Source: an uncultured Rhodospirillaceae bacterium (lineage in GTDB: Bacteria > Pseudomonadota > Alphaproteobacteria > UBA11136). From it: 64,000 nucleotides of DNA. The stretch's first letter is position 1. Each line of letters starts with the position of its first letter. Positions 6,265-57,899 of the stretch are shown piece by piece. The stretch spans positions 11,362 through 75,361 of the forward strand of contig CAYZWF010000001.1 in assembly GCA_964482135.1 (NCBI GenBank). The letters run 5' to 3'. Made by a program: the position numbers and the translations under genes. Below the pieces are notes generated by a model. It was not told the DNA's origin. It worked only from the letters and a program-made list of their open reading frames with translations, and ran no database searches.

Positions 6265-6423
6265 GGCAAAGTCCGTTCCAGTTCTTCCTTCCTGGCCACC
6301 CCTCAGAGAACCCAGCCCCGCTAGAGAACTAAAGAATATCCCCGAAAACCACCAAAATCTGACACCGTCCTCTCTCCGCTCTGTTGTACCCTGCCGGTAT
6401 GGAGTAGACTCTTCCGCCTAATA

Positions 6424-6509
6424 GGGCCAGGGTACGTCGGCCCCAAAAAAGGCGGCGCTGGCAAAACCAACAGCGCCGAGCTTGGGAAGGGCCAGGGTAC
6501 GTCGGCCCC
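6424..6509. repeat. Two copies of a REP-like dispersed element (GGGCCAGGGTACGTCGGCCCC followed by an A-run), in reverse orientation
   Basis: An identical 21-mer occurs at 6424-6444 and 6489-6509. It is the same family as the elements at 8927, 9853-10253, 14326 and 29655-29720. Confidence 0.8.
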
Positions 6510-6516
6510 GAAAAGA

Positions 6517-8001
6517 TTGTTGCGGGAGACCCTGTTGTCACCATCCTCCACCACGCAGGCACACGCTTGCGCTCCGGAAAACGAACAATGGTCGGCGCGC
6601 TTCATCGCACCGGAAAACCTGCCCGGTAAGCTTGCCGACTCTTTCGACCTGCTGCAACTGCACCGCTTGAACGGGGCGCGCTATCCCCACTTTCTGGAAT
6701 CAGCGGCGCGGGGCGGGGTCCAGGCCCGCTTCGACATCCTCTTCGCCTTTCCCGGCGACACCCTGACCCTTACAAGCGACGGCCTCCTCACCGGCGCCGA
6801 CCACATAGAACGCAAGCGCGACAAGGGCTTTCTCTCCACCTTCGACCGCTGGTGGGGACAGGCCATGTTCCCGGCTCCGGTAACCATGGAAATCGGCAGC
6901 GTGCCGCCCTTTCACGGCGGCTGGTTCCTCTATCTGGGATACGAGCTGGCGCGCGAGATCGAACCGACGCTGGACTTTCCCTCGGCACCCGGCGACTTCC
7001 CCATTGCCTTCGCCACCCGCTTCCCGGCGGCCGTCATCCGCGACCATGAAAGCGGCGAAGTAACCCTGGTGGCCGAAACCGGCTGCGACGATCTGCTCGA
7101 CAAAATGGAGGCCGACCTCGCTGCCCTTGCGCAATCGCCGCCGCCGCCCTTCACCGATACCCAATGCCTCGAAGGCGATCTCGACGAAGACCCGCCGGAC
7201 CAGCATCTTGAAAATCTGCGCCACTGTATCGACTATATTTATGCCGGCGACGTGTTCCAGGTGAACCTGTCGCGGGCCTGGCGCGGCCGGCTCACCCGGG
7301 ACATCTCCCACGCCCACCTCTATGACCGGCTGCGCGGCTGTAATCCCGCGCCCTTTGCCGGGCTTGTGACGCGGGGCGATGACGCCATCATCAGCTCCTC
7401 GCCGGAACGGCTGGTGGAAGTGCGCGGGCGTATCATCCAGACCCGCCCCATCGCCGGCACCCGGCCGCGCGGGTCGAGCGGCATCACCGATGTGGCCTTG
7501 TCCGAGGAGCTTCTCGCCCATCCCAAGGAGCGGGCCGAACACATCATGCTGGTGGACCTCGAGCGCAACGATATTTCCCGGGTCTGCAAGCCGGGCAGCG
7601 TGCGCGTGGACGAAATGATGGTGGTGGAATCCTACGCCCATGTGCATCACATCGTCTCCAACGTGCGCGGCGAACTGGCCCGCGCGGTGGCCCCCGGCGA
7701 GGTGGTGCGCGCGGTCTTTCCCGGCGGCACTATCACCGGCTGTCCCAAGGTGCGCTGTATGGAAATCCTCGCTGAACTGGAAGGCGTGGGGCGCGGCCCC
7801 TATACCGGCTCCATGGGCTATGTGAACCGCGACGGCAGCCTCGACCTCAATATCCTGATCCGCACCATGCTGCGCGAGGGCGATGCGGTTTGCCTGCGTG
7901 CCGGCGGCGGCATCGTCGCCGATTCCGATCCTGAAAAGGAACTGGAGGAAACCCGCGACAAGGCCAAAGGCGTGGTCCGCGCCCTCACCGAGGGAGGGTG
8001 A
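6517..8001 (+). CDS. pabB: aminodeoxychorismate synthase component I (anthranilate synthase component I family)
   Basis: Chorismate-binding enzyme motifs (PIAGTRPRG, HIMLVDLERNDI, FPGGTITGCPKVRCMEIL, GSMGY). Assigned as pabB rather than trpE because a class-IV aminotransferase (pabC) follows immediately downstream. Confidence 0.75.
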   Translation: MLRETLLSPSSTTQAHACAPENEQWSARFIAPENLPGKLADSFDLLQLHRLNGARYPHFLESAARGGVQARFDILFAFPGDTLTLTSDGLLTGADHIERKRDKGFLSTFDRWWGQAMFPAPVTMEIGSVPPFHGGWFLYLGYELAREIEPTLDFPSAPGDFPIAFATRFPAAVIRDHESGEVTLVAETGCDDLLDKMEADLAALAQSPPPPFTDTQCLEGDLDEDPPDQHLENLRHCIDYIYAGDVFQVNLSRAWRGRLTRDISHAHLYDRLRGCNPAPFAGLVTRGDDAIISSSPERLVEVRGRIIQTRPIAGTRPRGSSGITDVALSEELLAHPKERAEHIMLVDLERNDISRVCKPGSVRVDEMMVVESYAHVHHIVSNVRGELARAVAPGEVVRAVFPGGTITGCPKVRCMEILAELEGVGRGPYTGSMGYVNRDGSLDLNILIRTMLREGDAVCLRAGGGIVADSDPEKELEETRDKAKGVVRALTEGG

Positions 8002-8908: not shown

Positions 8909-8926
8909 CCGCCCTCTTTTTTCAGG

Positions 8927-8948
8927 TCCGCAGACTCCGACGTACCTG
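8927..8948. repeat. REP-like element, variant (GGTCCGCAGACTCCGACGTACCTG preceded by a T-run)
   Basis: Matches the longer T-run + GGGGCCGCAGTCTCTGACGTACC family seen at 10003 and 14326. It is followed by an imperfect hairpin at 8947-8980. The element lies between the convergent pabC gene and the peptide array. Confidence 0.6.
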
Positions 8949-9056
8949 TCTCCCAAAGCTGCGAAGCAGCGAAGGGAGACCTTGGGCCTTAAAACAAAAA
9001 ATCCCGCGAGGTGATTCCCCGCGAGGTTTTTGTTAATTCCTGACGCTGGGTCAGGT

Positions 9057-9188
9057 CTATCCAGGCTGGTTGGAGTTAAAGCAATAGTACATAGTTGCTT
9101 GCATGTTCCCGTCAGCCCGGTCCAGGGCTTCGTCGGAAAGCTCGGCCAGGTCTTCGCTCTCGGGTTTTTTCACATCAGTCTTGGGCAT
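9057..9188 (-). CDS. putative RiPP/bacteriocin-like precursor peptide, copy 1 (43 aa): MPKTDVKKPESEDLAELSDEALDRADGNMQATMYYCFNSNQPG
   Basis: The ATG at 9188 is preceded by an AAAGGAAAACCCC SD-like sequence. The conserved 24-aa leader is shared with three paralogues, the C-terminus is unique, and there is a clean stop at 9057-9059. It is absent from the ORF track because it is under 60 aa. Confidence 0.6.
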   Translation of the reverse strand: MPKTDVKKPESEDLAELSDEALDRADGNMQATMYYCFNSNQPG

Positions 9189-9210
9189 GGGGTTTTCCTT
9201 TTAGTGCCAC

Positions 9211-9345
9211 TTACTCAGCCGGTGACGTAGTCCCGCAGTGGCTGGTATTCGTGCATACCTTCGTGATCTCTAAACGGTCCAGGACCTCGTCGCTGAGTTC
9301 AGCCACATCCTCGCTCTCGATTTTTTTCACATCTGTTTTGGGTAT
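9211..9345 (-). CDS. precursor-peptide paralogue, copy 2 (44 aa if translated): [I]PKTDVKKIESEDVAELSDEVLDRLEITKVCTNTSHCGTTSPAE; the start codon is ATA, so it may be a pseudogene
   Basis: The frame is conserved behind an AAAGGGAGGAACCC SD sequence, but the initiator position reads ATA. An in-frame TAA lies 5 codons upstream, so no alternative ATG exists. Confidence 0.4.
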   Translation of the reverse strand: MPKTDVKKIESEDVAELSDEVLDRLEITKVCTNTSHCGTTSPAE

Positions 9346-9367
9346 GGGTTCCTCCCTTTAATGGGGG

Positions 9368-9508
9368 TCAGTCAGCCGGAGCACTATTAGCGCAGGCGCC
9401 ACTGTTGCTGTTGCACCATTGTAAGTTCTCGGCGGTCCGGTCCAGAGCCTCGTCGGCAAGTTCAGCCACATCCTCGCTCTCGATTTTTTTAACGTCTGTC
9501 TTGGGCAT
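9368..9508 (-). CDS. precursor-peptide paralogue, copy 3 (46 aa): MPKTDVKKIESEDVAELADEALDRTAENLQWCNSNSGACANSAPAD
   Basis: The ATG at 9508 is preceded by AAAGGGAGAACCTC. It carries the conserved leader, and the stop is TGA at 9368-9370. Confidence 0.6.
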   Translation of the reverse strand: MPKTDVKKIESEDVAELADEALDRTAENLQWCNSNSGACANSAPAD

Positions 9509-9571
9509 GAGGTTCTCCCTTTAGTGGCGGCTATTCAGCCGGGGACAGCTACGCGCAGCAGCCGACACAGC

Positions 9572-9718
9572 CTATGTTATACACGAGGACGAGGACGCGC
9601 ATCCGCCAACGCTGGCGCATACGATGTACACCTGCGCATCCGAAGTCCGGTCCAGGGCCTCGTCACTGAGTTCGGCCAAGTCTTCGCTCTCGGGTTTTTT
9701 CACATCTGTTTTGGGCAT
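9572..9718 (-). CDS. precursor-peptide paralogue, copy 4 (48 aa): MPKTDVKKPESEDLAELSDEALDRTSDAQVYIVCASVGGCASSSSCIT
   Basis: The ATG at 9718 is preceded by GGGGAGAAAACT. It forms the C-terminal part of ORF-track entry 9572..9904, whose upstream extension crosses non-coding repeat DNA. The core has 3 Cys and a run of Ser. Confidence 0.6.
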   Translation of the reverse strand: MPKTDVKKPESEDLAELSDEALDRTSDAQVYIVCASVGGCASSSSCIT

Positions 9719-9852
9719 AGTTTTCTCCCCGAAAGGTAGAATGAATGTAACGACACACCCATGGGGTTCTCCCCGAAAAGTAGAATGAGTGTAACGACGC
9801 ACCCATCCTAGGCGGAGTCGCCTTCGCGGTGCAAGAAAGCTCTCTTTTTTTA

Positions 9853-10253
9853 GGCCCGACGTACCCTGGTTTAGGGCCGACGTACCCTGGCCCTTGACTC
9901 CCACCCCTCTTTCATGCTAGGAATATTTTCTTAGCTCTTTGACATGATAAAGACGTTTCCCTACCGCGCGGCGGCGCGGCCGGTTGCGCCCATCCTCTTT
10001 TTGGGACCGCAGTCTCTAATTTACCCTGGCCCTTACCGGAGCGATGCTGCGCTGCGGCAGCCCATGTGTACAAATGATGACAAATGTTAACATTTTGGAG
10101 GCCCTGAGGGCATAAATTGTTTGAAATCAAAGACTTGGGCGTAAAAGGATGGGGGTAGTGGGGCGAACAACCCCGGTTTAGGGCTCTTTTTTCGGGGCCG
10201 CCGCACCTGACGTACCCTAGGCTTTTTTTATGGGGCCGACGTACCCTGGCCCC
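9853..10253. repeat. Cluster of at least five REP-like elements (T-run + GG(G)GCCGACGTACCCTGG(CCC), or longer variants with a CAGTCTCT insert)
   Basis: Copies lie at 9853-9869, 9874-9893, 10003-10032 (GGGACCGCAGTCTCTAATTTACCCTGGCCC), 10194-10221 and 10232-10253. Each is preceded by 5-9 T residues. Confidence 0.8.
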
Positions 10254-10264
10254 TGGCCCTAAAC

Positions 10265-12293: not shown

Positions 12294-14278
12294 ACGGCTG
12301 CCTTCTTTCTGCGCCGCGGCGCCCCCACCCGCAGGCGGCGGTCGCTGAGCGAAAGCAGCCCGCCCGCCACCATCACCAGGGAGCCGATCCACATCCATAC
12401 CACCAGCGGCGTAAAGAACAGACGGGTGACCCAGGCTCCGCTGTCGTCTTCGGCGGCATCCCCCAGCACCACGTAAAGATCGCCCCGTCCCGTGGTGTGG
12501 ATGGCGGCCTCGGTGGTGGGCATGGCGGCCACCGGATAGACACGTTTTTCGGGTTTCAGAACCATCACCTGGCGGCCCTCGCGGCGCACCGTGAATTGCC
12601 CCTGATCGGCCGAATAGTTGGGGCCTTCCACCTGGCGCACCCCTTCCAGGGTCACTTCATAGCCGCCCACCTCCATGGCGTCGCCGGGCAGGCTGGACTG
12701 GATATGTTCCTCGCGCCACAGCGAGGCCCCGGTGGCTCCGGCGATCACCAGTGCCAGCCCGGCATGGGCCAGGGTCATGCCATAGGCCGCGCGTGGCAGG
12801 CTGCGCGCCCGTTCCAGACACTCCCGCCAGGGGGCGCGGAACAGCCGCAGGCGGTCGGCCAATTCTGCCAGGGTGGCGAACAGCAGCCATGCCGCCGCCG
12901 CCAGCGCCACCAGCGCCAGCACCGGCCCGCCACGATGGAAATACCAGGCCGCCAGCGCCACCACCAGGGCCAGGCCAAGGGCCGCGTAAAGCCGCGAAAA
13001 GGCTCCCGAAAGATCGCCTCGCTTCCACGACAGGAACGGCCCCACGGCCATCACCACCACCATGGGCGCCATCAGCGGCAGGAAGGTGGCGTTGAAAAAA
13101 GGCGGGCCCACCGAGACCTTGGGGCCGCCCACGGCGTCGAGGAACAGCGGATACAGAGTGCCCAGCAGCACCGTTCCGGCGGCTGCCGTCATCAGCAGAT
13201 TATTGAGCAACAGAGTACCCTCGCGCGACACCGGAGAAAACAACCCGCCGCCCGTCAAGCTGGGTGCGCGCAGGGCATAGAGAACCAGCGAGCCGCCGAT
13301 CACGATCACCAGCAGGACCAGGATGAACACGCCGCGCGCGGGATCGGTGGCGAAGGCATGGACCGAGGTGAGCACGCCCGAGCGCACCAGAAAGGTGCCG
13401 ATAAGGCTGAAGGAAAAGGCGAGAATGGCCAACAGCACGGTCCAGCTTTTCAAGGCGTCGCGCTTCTCCACCACGATCGCCGAATGCAGCAATGCGGTGC
13501 CCACCAGCCACGGGATCAGCGAGGCGTTCTCCACCGGATCCCAGAACCAGAACCCGCCCCAGCCCAGCTCGTAATAGGCCCACCAGCTTCCCATGGCGAT
13601 ACCCAGAGTCAGGAAACACCAGGCGGCCAGCGTCCAGGGCCGCACCCAGCGCGCCCAGGCGGCATCCACCCGGCCTTCCATCAGCGCCGCGATGGCGAAG
13701 GAAAAGGCCATGGAAAAACCCACATAGCCCACATAGAGAAAAGGCGGATGAAAGGCCAGCCCCGGATCCTGAAGCAGGGGGTTCAGGTCGCGGCCGTCGG
13801 CGGGCGCCGGGAACAGGCGCGCGAAGGGATTGGAGGTCAGTAATATAAAGAACAGGAAACCGGCGCTGATGAGGCCCTGGATGCCCAGAACCCGGGCCCG
13901 GAAAGTGGCGGGAAGGTTGCTTCCGAAGAGCGCCACACAGAGCCCGAACAGGGCCAGGATGGCGACCCACAACACCATGGAGCCTTCGTGATGTCCCCAC
14001 ACGGCGGAGATTTTATAGATCAGGGGCAGCTTGGAATTGGCGTTGGCGGTTACCACCATCACCGAAAAATCGGCTTGCACGAAAAGCACCGTCAGCGCGG
14101 CGAAGGCTAGGATGACGAATACGAACTGCCCCAGCGCCGCCGGTCCCGCCAGGGCGATCCAGCCGTCGTCGTCGCGTCCTTGCCCTTGCCGGTGCGCCCC
14201 GGCGAGGGGAAGGCTGCCCTGGACCAGGGCCAGCACGAAGGCCAGGATCAAGGCGAAATGGCCCAGCTCGGCGATCAT
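12290..14278 (-). CDS. ccmF: cytochrome c-type biogenesis heme lyase subunit CcmF
   Basis: Polytopic protein of about 660 aa with CcmF-like WGGFWFWDPVEN (the WWD domain). Start at the MIAELGHFALILAF ATG at 14278. The ORF-track start at 14350 is an upstream extension into ccmE. Confidence 0.85.
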   Translation of the reverse strand: MIAELGHFALILAFVLALVQGSLPLAGAHRQGQGRDDDGWIALAGPAALGQFVFVILAFAALTVLFVQADFSVMVVTANANSKLPLIYKISAVWGHHEGSMVLWVAILALFGLCVALFGSNLPATFRARVLGIQGLISAGFLFFILLTSNPFARLFPAPADGRDLNPLLQDPGLAFHPPFLYVGYVGFSMAFSFAIAALMEGRVDAAWARWVRPWTLAAWCFLTLGIAMGSWWAYYELGWGGFWFWDPVENASLIPWLVGTALLHSAIVVEKRDALKSWTVLLAILAFSFSLIGTFLVRSGVLTSVHAFATDPARGVFILVLLVIVIGGSLVLYALRAPSLTGGGLFSPVSREGTLLLNNLLMTAAAGTVLLGTLYPLFLDAVGGPKVSVGPPFFNATFLPLMAPMVVVMAVGPFLSWKRGDLSGAFSRLYAALGLALVVALAAWYFHRGGPVLALVALAAAAWLLFATLAELADRLRLFRAPWRECLERARSLPRAAYGMTLAHAGLALVIAGATGASLWREEHIQSSLPGDAMEVGGYEVTLEGVRQVEGPNYSADQGQFTVRREGRQVMVLKPEKRVYPVAAMPTTEAAIHTTGRGDLYVVLGDAAEDDSGAWVTRLFFTPLVVWMWIGSLVMVAGGLLSLSDRRLRVGAPRRRKKAAV

Positions 14279-14297
14279 TGGCCCAACTCGGCGATCA
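14259..14297. repeat. 19-bp tandem direct duplication (TGGCCCA[G/A]CTCGGCGATCA x2) at the ccmE stop/ccmF start junction
   Basis: Copies at 14259-14277 and 14279-14297. On the coding (minus) strand this duplicates the first 6 codons of ccmF and creates a mimic mini-frame, GTG ATC GCC GAG TTG GGC CAA TGA, whose TGA overlaps the ccmF ATG. Confidence 0.7.
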
Positions 14298-14852
14298 CGG
14301 GCCGCTCTCTTCCTGGTCCTCTTCTGGGGCCGCAGTCTCTGACGTACCATGGCCCTCCTGGCCCTGCCATTGGCCCGACTTCTTCAGGGCGTCGGCCACT
14401 TCCGGGGGCATATAGTTCTCGTCATGCTTGGCCAGCACATTGGAGGCCTGAAACACGCCGTTGCGGTCGAGGCTGCCTTCCGCCACCACGCCCTGACCCT
14501 CGTGGAAGAGATCGGGAAGAAGACCGCTAAAGGTCACCGGCACCTCGTTGGAAAGGTCCGTGATCCGAAATACCACCGATCCGTCCCCGGCATTGCGTTC
14601 CACGCTTTCCTCCACCACCAGCCCGCCGAGACGCAGGCGGCGGCCCGGCTCTATGTCGCGGTCGAGAATTTCCGAAGGGCTGTAGAAAAAAACCAGATTA
14701 TCGCGCAGCGCCGAAAGCACCAGCGCCACCGATCCGCCCAGCAACACCATTCCGGCAAGCACCAGATACAGCCGCCGCCGCTTGCGGGTCATGGGCCGTT
14801 TCGGCGGAGAATTCTGAGGTGCCCCCGCGCTATCCTGGGTGGGAGTGCTCAT
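14295..14852 (-). CDS. ccmE: cytochrome c-type biogenesis heme chaperone CcmE
   Basis: Signal anchor followed by an OB-fold region with the CcmE-typical ...NLVFFYSPSEI... and LAKHDENYMPPEV (heme-binding His region). Confidence 0.85.
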   Translation of the reverse strand: MSTPTQDSAGAPQNSPPKRPMTRKRRRLYLVLAGMVLLGGSVALVLSALRDNLVFFYSPSEILDRDIEPGRRLRLGGLVVEESVERNAGDGSVVFRITDLSNEVPVTFSGLLPDLFHEGQGVVAEGSLDRNGVFQASNVLAKHDENYMPPEVADALKKSGQWQGQEGHGTSETAAPEEDQEESGP

Positions 14853-29277: not shown

Positions 29278-29654
29278 GGGCCAGGAACCCCCAGGCGAGA
29301 AAATAACGTGGACGACCCCACCATCGCCCCAACCTCGTAAAAACTGAAAATTTTCCTCTCGGGCCTGTTGAAGGACCGGTTTGTGACCGGCATGGACGGG
29401 TAAATGATCCCGCAAGGTATGGCAAAGCCCCTTTAAACCACTGCATAAAAATATACAATACATTGATTTACAATGGTTTTTTATGGCTGCGATGAATAAA
29501 TCACTTTCTTGTCCCGGAAGGTTACGCAAGGCTTTGCGATTCCCATCATTCTCCGCTAATTTGTGCGGCCCGCGCGCGAGACCCGATGCCCCGGAATACC
29601 CATATAAGTACAAGCATTGATGGCTTGCGCGCGAGGTGCGGCTGAGCTTTTTTG

Positions 29655-29720
29655 AGGCCCAATGTACCCTGGACCTTTTTGAGGCCCGACGTATTTTATG
29701 GCGCCGACGTACCCTGGCGC
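29655..29720. repeat. Three REP-like elements (GAGGCCCAATGTACCCTGGACC, GAGGCCCGACGTATTTT, GGCGCCGACGTACCCTGGCGC), each after a T-run
   Basis: Same family as the 9853-10253 elements. They lie inside the annotated 5' end of the gltB ORF, which argues the real start is downstream. Confidence 0.7.
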
Positions 29721-29783
29721 ATCCTGGGCCTTTTTTCGGGAAGGCTGGGAAGGCATGAAACCATAACGGACGGCATTAAGATT

Positions 29784-54321: not shown

Positions 54322-55194
54322 TTGTGGGATGTTAATAGTTTCGAGAAAGGACTAAATCGTATTGTCAACGTCATTCGGAAAATCTTTTCCGTTACTCCTT
54401 CCCTACACATTACCGAACTTAGGCAAGGATTAGGCAGATACCACCGCATAGCATTCGTTCCGCACAGTCGGGTGTTACTAGAAATATGCCGTCAACTCGA
54501 TTTTCTTGAGGTTAGGGAAAATCAAGTGAACACCATTTCTGGCAGGAGGCTTCCCAGCACTCTAGTGGGGATTGAGTCAACGCTGATCAAAGCGTTTCAG
54601 GGAAAACCGATCCTTTCCAGAGAAGCGCTTGAAACCAATGCCTTGGCTTTAGGAATGAATCGATCGAGCTTTTACGTAATGATTGGTTATTCACCAATAG
54701 TAGTCCGATTAGCTAGAGGGGTATATGCCCCTATTGGCGCAGATATTCCACCCGGTGTTGTTGAAGCAACAAAACCATCATTTCAAAGGAAGCGGGTTGT
54801 TGTTGATTTTGGCTGGAATGCTAACAGATATCTGTGGATCGCTTATCGTTTATCCAAAGCTATGCTAAGCGGCAACCAGGTCAATGTGCCAACCTCCGTA
54901 AAAGAGTTTATACAGGGAGAATGGCCTATGGAGACGACTAGTCAGGGAAAAGTCGCAGTCGTTTCGATAAATGGTACCAGTGTATCGGGCTTTTATACGC
55001 TTCTAGATAGACGCGGGGCCGAGTGTGGGGACACTCTAATTTTGGTGTTTGATACAAAAGATCATTTGTTTCGGATGGAGCTAGGCAGCGATGAATTGGT
55101 CGAGCGATGGAAAAATAGCGAACTTAAATTAACAGACGATCAGTTACTTGACCTTGATTCAGATAGTGAAGAAAGGGAAGCCCCCGCGGGTTAA
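54322..55194 (+). CDS. hypothetical protein in an AT-rich insertion (an ORF of about 290 aa, and the frame stays open upstream to 54148)
   Basis: Visibly lower GC than the flanks, with no recognised domain and an acidic C-terminus (DLDSDSEEREAP). The start is uncertain: TTG at 54322, and no in-frame ATG upstream. Confidence 0.45.
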   Translation: MWDVNSFEKGLNRIVNVIRKIFSVTPSLHITELRQGLGRYHRIAFVPHSRVLLEICRQLDFLEVRENQVNTISGRRLPSTLVGIESTLIKAFQGKPILSREALETNALALGMNRSSFYVMIGYSPIVVRLARGVYAPIGADIPPGVVEATKPSFQRKRVVVDFGWNANRYLWIAYRLSKAMLSGNQVNVPTSVKEFIQGEWPMETTSQGKVAVVSINGTSVSGFYTLLDRRGAECGDTLILVFDTKDHLFRMELGSDELVERWKNSELKLTDDQLLDLDSDSEEREAPAG

Positions 55195-57695: not shown

Positions 57696-57899
57696 AAGGG
57701 TTCCCCATAGCCCGCATCGCGATAGCAGACAAGGCGGGCCTCTTTATTGAGCGCCGATCTGGCCGAACTTTGCGATGAGGCTTTGGACCGCGCCGATGGC
57801 GGGATGGCGCAGGCTTGTCCTATCCCTCCCTCCACTGCAGGCGGCTGCAGCGCCTATTGGTCTCCGGCTGACTAGGCGGACGGGAAAGTAGACGAAAAA

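Follow-up and report, generated by a model that had tools for sequence, protein, structure and literature searches.

The 64-kb window analyzed here, a stretch of 64,000 nucleotides from an uncultured Rhodospirillaceae bacterium (contig CAYZWF010000001.1), carries a family of short, dispersed hairpin repeats. These are probably lineage-specific miniature repeats that act at the level of DNA and resemble repetitive extragenic palindromes (REPs) without being canonical REPs served by a RAYT transposase. The family is REP-like; it is not a terminator, not a miniature inverted-repeat transposable element (MITE) and not a CRISPR (clustered regularly interspaced short palindromic repeats) array, and it is ordinary in kind though unusual in detail. 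A preliminary description of the window had proposed a REP/MITE-type element concentrated upstream of an array of small peptide genes.

Each repeat unit is 25-31 nt long in its short form and 34-40 nt long in its long form. It starts with a pyrimidine-rich leader of consensus CTCTTTTTT (CTCTTYTT-type, with the variants CTCTTGTTG, CTTTATTA and GTTTATA), followed by a GC stem of 5-6 bp that encloses an asymmetric 10-nt loop, GACGTACCCT. In the alignment of clade copies, the loop is invariant save for C/T at one position. The long form contains 9 extra nucleotides 3' of the 5' arm, with the consensus GC[A/C]G-NNN-CT in 13 distinct long copies; a consistent internal pairing partner for this insert was sought in the same 13 copies and none was found. 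The longer variant noted in the preliminary description therefore exists, but its insert (GCAGTCTCT) is of 9 nt, not 8.

A covariance model, R1, was built from 65 distinct clade copies, and covariation in the stem was assessed. Pairing was found in 92.1% of the stem cells, as compared with 82.3% in column shuffles, none of 500 shuffles reaching the observed value. Changes on both sides of the stem were present in 35 cells, where 9.4 were expected, and the covariation score was 0.256 versus 0.100, with every slid control below it. Covariation was also seen in a smaller set of copies. The compensated variants were GGCCC/GGGCC, GCGCC/GGCGC, GAGCC/GGCTC and GCCCC/GGGGC; the search pattern fixed only the inner base pairs, and these variants were therefore not chosen by the pattern. 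Folded as single-stranded DNA, the hairpin gave -6.9 kcal/mol (z = -3.2) on either strand. The presence of a covarying stem around an invariant, asymmetric loop means that it is as a folded single strand, rather than as a double-stranded operator, that the sequence is under constraint. G:T wobbles were more frequent on the leader strand than on the other one (20 versus 4 overall; 8 versus 3 among inner pairs), which weakly suggests that folding takes place on the leader strand. When the 65 distinct copies were aligned, a T-rich consensus (CTTTTTT) and no GTAG head was seen in the 12 positions before the 5' arm of the stem, and the T-run of single copies is located 5' of the stem. Both the 6-bp GC stem and the position of the T-run before rather than after it had been described correctly.

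The distribution of the family was followed with an exact scan for the 18-mer GGCCGACGTACCCTGGCC in one genome per species (185,579 species). This returned 54 loci, about 20 of which, with about 27 exact copies, belong to Alphaproteobacteria bacterium BS150m-G7, a metagenome-assembled genome (MAG) from the Black Sea at 150 m and a congener of the window organism. It was the only one of these genomes in which the 18-mer was enriched. One copy with a T leader was common, at the same site, to two further marine alphaproteobacterial MAGs; the other matches were single, in unrelated GC-rich organisms, and at about chance level. The window does not belong to this MAG, homologous stretches of the two being 87-92% identical. 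About 14 further loci of the family, many of them from one assembly (JACKQG01 accessions), came from a degenerate scan of metagenome contigs, which otherwise yielded mostly chance matches in GC-rich coding DNA. R1 gave 74 matches in 283 kb of clade loci (numbered with the prefix L). The repeat family is restricted to one clade. Its count is above chance and copies occur beyond the window, so that neither of the two findings which would have undone the preliminary description, a chance-level count or confinement to this stretch, was obtained. A literature search with the exact core sequence, on both strands, returned only an unrelated human primer; as far as such an exact-sequence search can tell, the family was previously undescribed.

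Within the window, the 15-mer core GCCGACGTACCCTGG (up to 2 mismatches) matched 6 times for 0.30 expected, a number equaled in none of 100 shuffles, and the 12-mer GACGTACCCTGG (up to 2 mismatches) matched 14 times for 4.5 expected. R1, run with filters off, found 7 matches at E<0.05, long, truncated and interrupted copies scoring lower. Inspection by eye gave 12 units (one truncated), along with three partial 3' duplications and, at 57738, the remnant of a decayed copy. The motif was thus found, well above chance, at all positions given previously, and the earlier figure of at least 14 copies holds if fragments are counted, the tally being otherwise of 12 units. Six of seven independent sites are in intergenic DNA, which represents 10% of the window (p about 7e-6), and all units lie in its first 30 kb. 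When the window was searched with Rfam, two tRNAs alone reached the gathering score, with nothing at the repeats. The copies are the following.

6423..6452, minus strand: short unit CCTTTTTT-GGGGCC-GACGTACCCT-GGCCC(T); R1 49.9 bits.
6488..6517, minus strand: short unit ATCTTTTC-GGGGCC-GACGTACCCT-GGCCC(T); R1 41.1 bits; window lineage only.
8914..8989, plus strand: long unit made of leader, AGGTCC, GCAGACTCC and GACGTACC...CTTGGGCCT, 3' of pabC; read from the sequence.
9842..9869, plus strand: short unit, 5' arm GGCCC, cut short in its 3' arm by the following unit; read from the sequence.
9870..9893, plus strand: short unit TTTA-GGGCC-GACGTACCCT-GGCCC, adjoining a promoter-like TTGACTCCCACCCC module; R1 46.5 bits.
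9993..10032, plus strand: long unit with a degenerate loop, GGGACC-GCAGTCTCT-AATTTACCCT-GGCCC; R1 10 bits.
10184..10222, plus strand: long unit CTCTTTTTTC-GGGGCC-GCCGCACCT-GACGTACCCT-AGGC; window lineage only.
10223..10261, plus strand: short consensus unit with a partial 3' duplication, CTGGCCC; best R1 match, 50.3 bits, E=4.6e-13.
14316..14361, plus strand: long unit, in frame and antisense, within the 3' coding end of ccmE; R1 15.6 bits; a 45-nt indel relative to the sister species.
29647..29677, plus strand: degenerate short unit GGCCC-AATGTACCCT-GGACC, upstream of gltB; R1 23.7 bits.
29678..29695, plus strand: truncated unit made of leader, GGCCC and GACGTA; read from the sequence.
29696..29731, plus strand: short unit with a compensated GCGCC/GGCGC stem and a partial 3' duplication, ATCCTGGGCC; R1 40.4 bits.
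57738..57765, plus strand: decayed remnant CTCTTTATTG-AGCGCC-GA..TCTGG-CC; nested units at the orthologous site of the sister species.

The unit at 6423 directly follows a terminator-like hairpin and its T-run in the divergent spacer between pabB and a diacylglycerol kinase gene. Together with its neighbor it forms the pair reported earlier at 6424-6509, which does consist of two copies (6423-6517), though these are direct with respect to each other, both on the minus strand, and it is only with respect to the remaining copies that they are inverted. At about 8947-8981 a nested hairpin, TGTCTCCC..GGGAGAC, breaks the loop of the unit at 8914, and because of this interruption the unit scores only 8.2 bits with R1. 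The unit at 9993 comes after a terminator-like hairpin (9973-9990), and that at 10223, found in the window lineage only, is 3 nt from the stop codon of ccmI, to which it is antisense. Five copies had been announced upstream of the peptide array, and five are there (at 9842, 9870, 9993, 10184 and 10223). Three had likewise been placed in the gltB leader; they are present, as two full units and one truncated unit, and from the unit at 29696 it is about 25 nt to the probable start codon of gltB downstream. The longest gltB open reading frame (ORF) begins with a TTG at 29652 and reads through all three units, the true start being likely an ATG near 29753. Repeat units contain no stop codon in any frame and can therefore inflate ORF calls. 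The pabC ORF of the window, whose start is over-extended, had no match in an exact lookup.

Comparison with related genomes indicated how these copies change. Syntenic regions covering the ccm genes, the peptide array and pabCB were obtained through CcmI homologues from a sister (the BS150m-G7 species, L055-L058; CcmI 89% identical, about 90-92% nucleotide identity), a third congener (L132-L134; CcmI 90% identical) and an outgroup (L130/L131; CcmI 62-68% identical). The spacer between ccmI and the array lacks all five window copies in the sister, which has unrelated sequence at the 9870 site. The third congener (L133) has in common with the window, in this spacer, only the site abutting a TTGACTCCC module; two of the five copy sites are filled there and three are specific to the window, the unit at 9993..10032 being absent from both the sister and L133. 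The copy at 6423 is orthologous in window, sister and outgroup: the sister has the long form (+10 nt), the other two the short one. Only the window has a copy at 6488, sister and outgroup being identical at the empty site, CTCCC-AATA-CTTCCC, and the leader of this copy seems to have arrived along with the unit. At the 3' end of pabC, a short unit accompanies an intact long one in the sister, where the window has one long unit interrupted by the other hairpin. The locus orthologous to 55.3 kb of the window contains a 5 x 27-nt array in the sister and none in the window, and at the site orthologous to 57738 the sister has a unit nested in another one (L014 2581-2616). Copies have thus been gained, lost, multiplied head to tail, nested and switched in form between genomes that are about 10% apart.

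Copies are also found in coding DNA. The unit at 14316-14361 lies, as previously described, within the last codons of ccmE; it is in frame and antisense and codes for the segment EGHGTSETAAPEEDQ of the CcmE tail; the sister ccmE lacks exactly 45 nt at this site. Among five genomes the CcmE tail varies by whole units, with one short tail (QGTSALDKE), two-copy tails (EPDYVGPKKITSAPKK and GPEYIGPKKDASETAAPKE) and the single long copy of the window. Element-derived tails, differing in copy number and form, are also present in L130, L131 and L132, and their occurrence in the outgroup strains and the third congener indicates by parsimony that the ccmE site is ancestral. The GGGCCAGGG-AGAG found at this place in the sister would be the remnant of a deletion. 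In the outgroup, CcmI (L130/L131) contains two in-frame insertions, GPGYVGPQQ and AQRPRVRRPQKGTSAQEEAQ, which are derived, since six other homologues lack them. For insertion 1, the CT-rich tract CTCTTCTT located 5' of the hairpin (Glu codons on the coding strand) pre-exists in the insertion-free genomes. The target of insertion 2, GCCCAGGAAGAG (codons for AQEE), resembles both ends of the element. New copies have thus entered coding DNA, as in the ccmI of the outgroup, and older in-frame copies form the CcmE tail. By rough gene calls, 10 copies are inside ORFs, 8 antisense and 2 sense; the called start is no more than about 40 nt away from either sense copy, and these two copies are probably in fact intergenic. 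The antisense bias fits selection, because the antisense frames encode hydrophilic Gly/Pro/Lys/Glu peptides. We considered a SINE-like (short interspersed nuclear element) reading on the complementary strand, with a hairpin, an A-rich tail and a target duplication, as suggested by CCAGGA repeats around the ccmE copy. It was dropped as the main explanation, because the ccmE site is ancestral, being occupied in the outgroups, and because the 'tail' of ccmI insertion 1 pre-exists where there is no insertion.

Neighboring units are arranged head to tail. BS150m-G7 contains arrays of 5 x 27 nt, 4 x 27 nt, 4 x 29 nt and 3 x 31 nt, as well as one array in which short units (25 nt) are mixed with long ones (34 nt), and of the adjacent pairs within 120 nt among 91 copies 32 were direct and 1 inverted, with periods of 27, 29, 31 and 34 nt. 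The arrays have no spacer between units and a period of 25-34 nt; a CRISPR array was rejected on these grounds, there being no unique spacers between the direct repeats. Units also occur nested in one another and before partial copies of their own 3' half. Ten genes flanking the largest arrays were searched against Pfam; all were housekeeping (including genes for a phosphate-binding protein, a histidine kinase, PBP1, a GGDEF-EAL protein, UbiB and Ate), and none coded for a transposase or integrase. The four possible orientations of the flanking genes were about evenly represented around intergenic copies (10/9/8/8, by rough gene calls). This evenness and the lack of relation to GC skew described below argue against a directional role at the RNA level.

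For a transposase of the Y1/HUH type, the clade DNA (397 kb) was searched by tblastn and phmmer with E. coli RayT, IS200 TnpA and IS608 TnpA as queries. The RayT query agrees with the published catalytic residues of TnpA-REP, H59-M60-H61 and Y115 (PMC3479197). The only match, a weak one in L030 (7251-7787, E = 0.005), corresponded to the antisense strand of fabI and was spurious.

We compared the units with the known families of small repeats. REPs, with the BIMEs and REPINs that they compose and the associated RAYT (TnpA-REP), are found in Enterobacteria, Pseudomonas and Stenotrophomonas in tens to hundreds of copies. As in the REP/REPIN-RAYT system, the units are short, GC-rich, imperfectly palindromic hairpins that are numerous, mostly extragenic and lineage-specific, both persist and turn over at orthologous sites and cluster in some spacers. 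The REP hairpin carries a GTAG or GTGG tetranucleotide at its 5' foot (PMC3479197), which is replaced here by the pyrimidine-rich leader, and REPs are organized as inverted doublets (REPIN) or in alternating orientation (BIME) (PMC3116915, PMC3337134), whereas the neighbors here are head to tail (32:1). In the present family, moreover, it is the loop that is conserved, the stem covarying, and some copies are in frame in genes. The REP/MITE assignment of the preliminary description consequently stands in part: the covarying hairpin, the intergenic bias, the enrichment in the clade and the differences in presence and copy number between congeners are those of a REP-like element, not of a simple terminator, but a strict REP or MITE is not supported, given the lack of GTAG, the 32:1 ratio of direct pairs, the failure to find a RAYT in the 397 kb searched and the absence of terminal inverted repeats with a consistent target duplication.

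MITEs are derived from insertion sequences (IS) and have terminal inverted repeats and a target-site duplication of fixed length. The likeness fails, since the unit measures 25-40 nt versus 50-500 bp and the loci contain no parent IS; no consistent target-site duplication was found at the junctions of the polymorphic sites. The dRS3 repeats of Neisseria and the mosaic elements (NIME) that they form consist of a roughly 20-nt unit with 6-nt terminal inverted repeats, present in very many copies and in mosaic clusters in spacers. The dRS3 arms (ATTCCC..GGGAAT) are conserved around a variable center, and the repeat is a target of phage and IS110-type integration. Short many-copy units with 6-nt arms clustered in spacers are common to both families, but here the center is invariant, the arms covary and no associated integrase was seen. 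The Rickettsia palindromic elements (RPEs) measure about 100-150 bp, sit in frame in genes and add peptide segments. They share with the present units the behavior of alphaproteobacterial palindromic repeats that lie in frame in ORFs, a likeness of behavior only, no sequence having been compared; the units differ from them by their length of 25-40 nt, their tandem arrays and their mostly intergenic location. RPEs are mentioned in PMC10969869 and PMC1779305. In the IS200/IS605 family, a hairpin is recognized as single-stranded DNA and insertion takes place 3' of a short specific sequence, without target duplication (PMC3479197). Analogously, the units always lie 3' of a CTCTTYTT tract, but a single hairpin makes up the whole unit, unlike IS200/IS605 elements and palindrome-associated transposable elements (PATEs), which have two different subterminal hairpins with at least 100 nt between them.

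The mechanism that we propose has two parts. Local slippage or unequal exchange between the GGCC-containing arms would generate the arrays and the partial duplications, and rare ectopic insertion beside CT-rich tracts, through a single-stranded hairpin intermediate, would seed new sites, by means of either a trans-acting enzyme or template switching. Most copies would be neutral passengers, and neither terminators nor a device specific to the peptide array. Several observations weigh against this proposal. The 397 kb of clade DNA searched, all 20 BS150m-G7 loci with exact copies among them, yielded no Y1/HUH transposase. Transposition through lagging-strand single-stranded DNA would predict a strand bias, and the ratio of 24:18 observed between orientation and local GC skew (p = 0.44) gives no support to it, the test being weak on short MAG pieces. 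No clean pair of empty and filled sites with sharp junctions was obtained; boundaries are blurred because of the divergence of about 10% and of microhomology, the targets GCCCAGGAAGAG and GGGCCAGGG resembling the ends of the element. Finally, orthologous copies retain the loop sequence across genomes in which CcmI is only 62-68% identical, and a copy adjoins the TTGACT (-35 box) of five paralogous promoter-like modules. Loop retention and these five copies could reflect host function or gene conversion rather than neutrality.

These last findings also speak for regarding the copies as cis-elements selected by the host and kept for their usefulness, in which the hairpin, as cruciform or single-stranded DNA or as RNA, would be a binding site for a conserved protein or, as in some REPs, would stabilize or process mRNA. 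The invariance of the loop with a covarying stem over this evolutionary distance, the maintenance, in three to five genomes, of same-site copies at the ccmE/ccmF junction and in the spacer between pabB and the kinase gene, and the 20-to-4 excess of G:T wobbles on the leader strand point the same way. Yet copy number and form vary freely at a given site, the sister dispenses with the five copies of the hotspot spacer, arrays of 4-5 units stand between unrelated housekeeping genes, and copies show no orientation preference relative to flanking genes and occur in coding DNA and within each other; we consider host selection unlikely, though it is the strongest of the alternatives. Somewhat more doubtful is that the copies are canonical REPs or REPINs spread by a single-copy RAYT (a Y1 HUH transposase) encoded elsewhere in the genome. 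Like REPINs, they are short GC-rich hairpins in many copies, extragenic and persistent at orthologous sites (PMC3116915, PMC5581495), and their leader holds CT dinucleotides, CT being the cleavage site of E. coli TnpA-REP (PMC3479197). The hairpin foot, however, has no GTAG or GTGG, adjacent pairs are direct rather than inverted (32 versus 1), no Y1 transposase was found in the 397 kb searched, exact-copy loci of BS150m-G7 included, and Group 1, the one RAYT group discussed for Alphaproteobacteria in PMC5581495, is rare in them.

Equally doubtful is that the hairpin of roughly 27 nt is an autonomous-looking mobile unit which moves without a transposase of the RAYT or IS200 type. It might do so through an undescribed enzyme that recognizes the invariant loop when the DNA is single-stranded, or by being inserted from a template wherever there is microhomology to its own ends (GCCCAGG...AAGAG), and would in addition repeatedly donate in-frame peptide modules (GPGYVGPKK, GQGTSAPKE) to housekeeping proteins such as CcmE and CcmI. 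If true, it would rank with the smallest known units of mobile DNA, and protein tails would evolve from it. There is little to recommend the idea that each copy is a piece or an end of some larger composite cassette comprising the element, a promoter-like module, a small transcript and peptide genes. Blocks of 100-150 nt that contain two units, a GTAGAGC linker and the TTGACTCCC module are indeed common to L013, L018, L031, L040 and L054 of BS150m-G7, and copies lie beside peptide arrays at four loci. Most copies, however, have no such neighbors (the arrays of L014, L016, L020 and L009, and the ccmE, ccmI, gltB and pabB-spacer copies), and only the 25-40-nt unit is common to all sites. Least probable is a role as intrinsic terminators or parts of attenuators. 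The next T-rich leader does come after the hairpin in arrays and in certain single copies, and the partial 3' duplications can form an alternative hairpin with a T-run (...GGCCCCTGTACCCTGGGCTTTTT). In single copies, however, the T-run is 5' of the stem, so that neither strand reads as a terminator; a terminator scan flagged neighboring hairpins and not the repeat units; and the four gene-orientation contexts are equally frequent, some copies lying between divergent genes or within genes.

The clustering of units upstream of the peptide array, also pointed out in the preliminary description, is real: the 546-nt spacer between ccmI and the array holds five units, and three of the six independent intergenic sites of the window (p about 0.01). 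Of six peptide-array loci in the clade, four (window, sister, L020 and L035; not L016 and L084) have units no farther than about 250 nt from the array, an association that is only suggestive, because the loci were chosen for carrying the unit. Co-location of units and peptide array is real, but the further claim that the repeats make this locus recombination-prone is unproven. In the sister, 5-9 genes are called in the array among assemblies, though its ccmI-side spacer is devoid of units. The repeat units do not, on present evidence, explain the peptide array.

The array itself belongs to a multi-locus family of genes for peptides of 38-50 residues, with a conserved leader, MPKTDVKKxESEDxxELSDEALDR, and hypervariable, Cys-rich cores. 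By their sequences they look like diversified precursors of ribosomally synthesized and post-translationally modified peptides. The window has 4 of these genes and the corresponding locus of the sister 5-9, and the loci are at 9057-9718 (minus strand) of the window, L055 11342-12838, L016 351-617, L020 470-760, L035 1-425 and L084 60. The four window peptides matched no NCBIfam family.

Other sequences were observed near the repeats. A promoter- or operator-like module, TTGACTCCCaCCCC-N-TGaTAGGAATATT(A/T)TCCT, is present at 9894-10000 of the window (plus strand) and in at least 6 places in BS150m-G7, with occurrences at L018 1507, L031 4018 and 4878, L052 2780 and L054 4970. A hairpin and T-run come after the window module, at 9973-10000, and could mark out a small transcript about 70 nt long, and iterated TGTTAACATTTGTCATCATTTGT motifs occur nearby at about 10044-10100. 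A second hairpin repeat, TGTCTCCC-(GCGAAG-rich loop)-GGGAGAC, found at 8947-8981 of the window, recurs beside a unit at about 1790-1830 of L020; judging from its sequence, it may be another family of miniature repeats. Where ccmE stops and ccmF starts (14258-14297), there is a 20-nt tandem duplication of the start region of ccmF, GTGATCGCCGAGTTGGGCCA / ATGATCGCCGAGCTGGGCCA, which is also present in L055 and L131 and single in L130 and L132. The divergent spacer between pabB and the kinase gene contains a 32-nt block, CAGGGTCTCCCAATACTTCCCAAGCCGGGCGC, identical in sister and outgroup despite the 62-68% identity of CcmI and followed by a terminator-like hairpin (window about 6460-6560, minus strand; L055 15508-15560; L130 14365-14400); this block could be a conserved leader or a small RNA. 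The window segment 54100-55330 has a low GC content (0.51) and its own ORF (54322-55194), the sister having another gene and the 5-unit array there; it may be an inserted island. GC skew in the window is negative to about 14 kb and positive past about 22 kb, and lower-GC stretches lie at 38-47 kb. In BS150m-G7, a toxin-antitoxin-like gene pair (L020 936-1560, minus strand) is located between two repeat clusters; one gene has an HTH_3 domain and the small upstream ORF is RelE/HigB-like by eye.

Recognition of this family accounts for several oddities of these genomes, namely the spacer motifs made of a T-run plus a hairpin, the over-extended gltB start, the variable tail of CcmE and the length differences of CcmI. 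The units provide a sequence marker for uncultured Alphaproteobacteria of the Black Sea and other marine metagenomes, and give clear cases of clade-specific repeats that are read as protein. They also indicate that REP-like behavior can occur without a GTAG head, inverted doublets or a nearby RAYT. If a mobilizing enzyme or templated insertion were found, this would widen the known routes by which very short DNA spreads in bacterial genomes.

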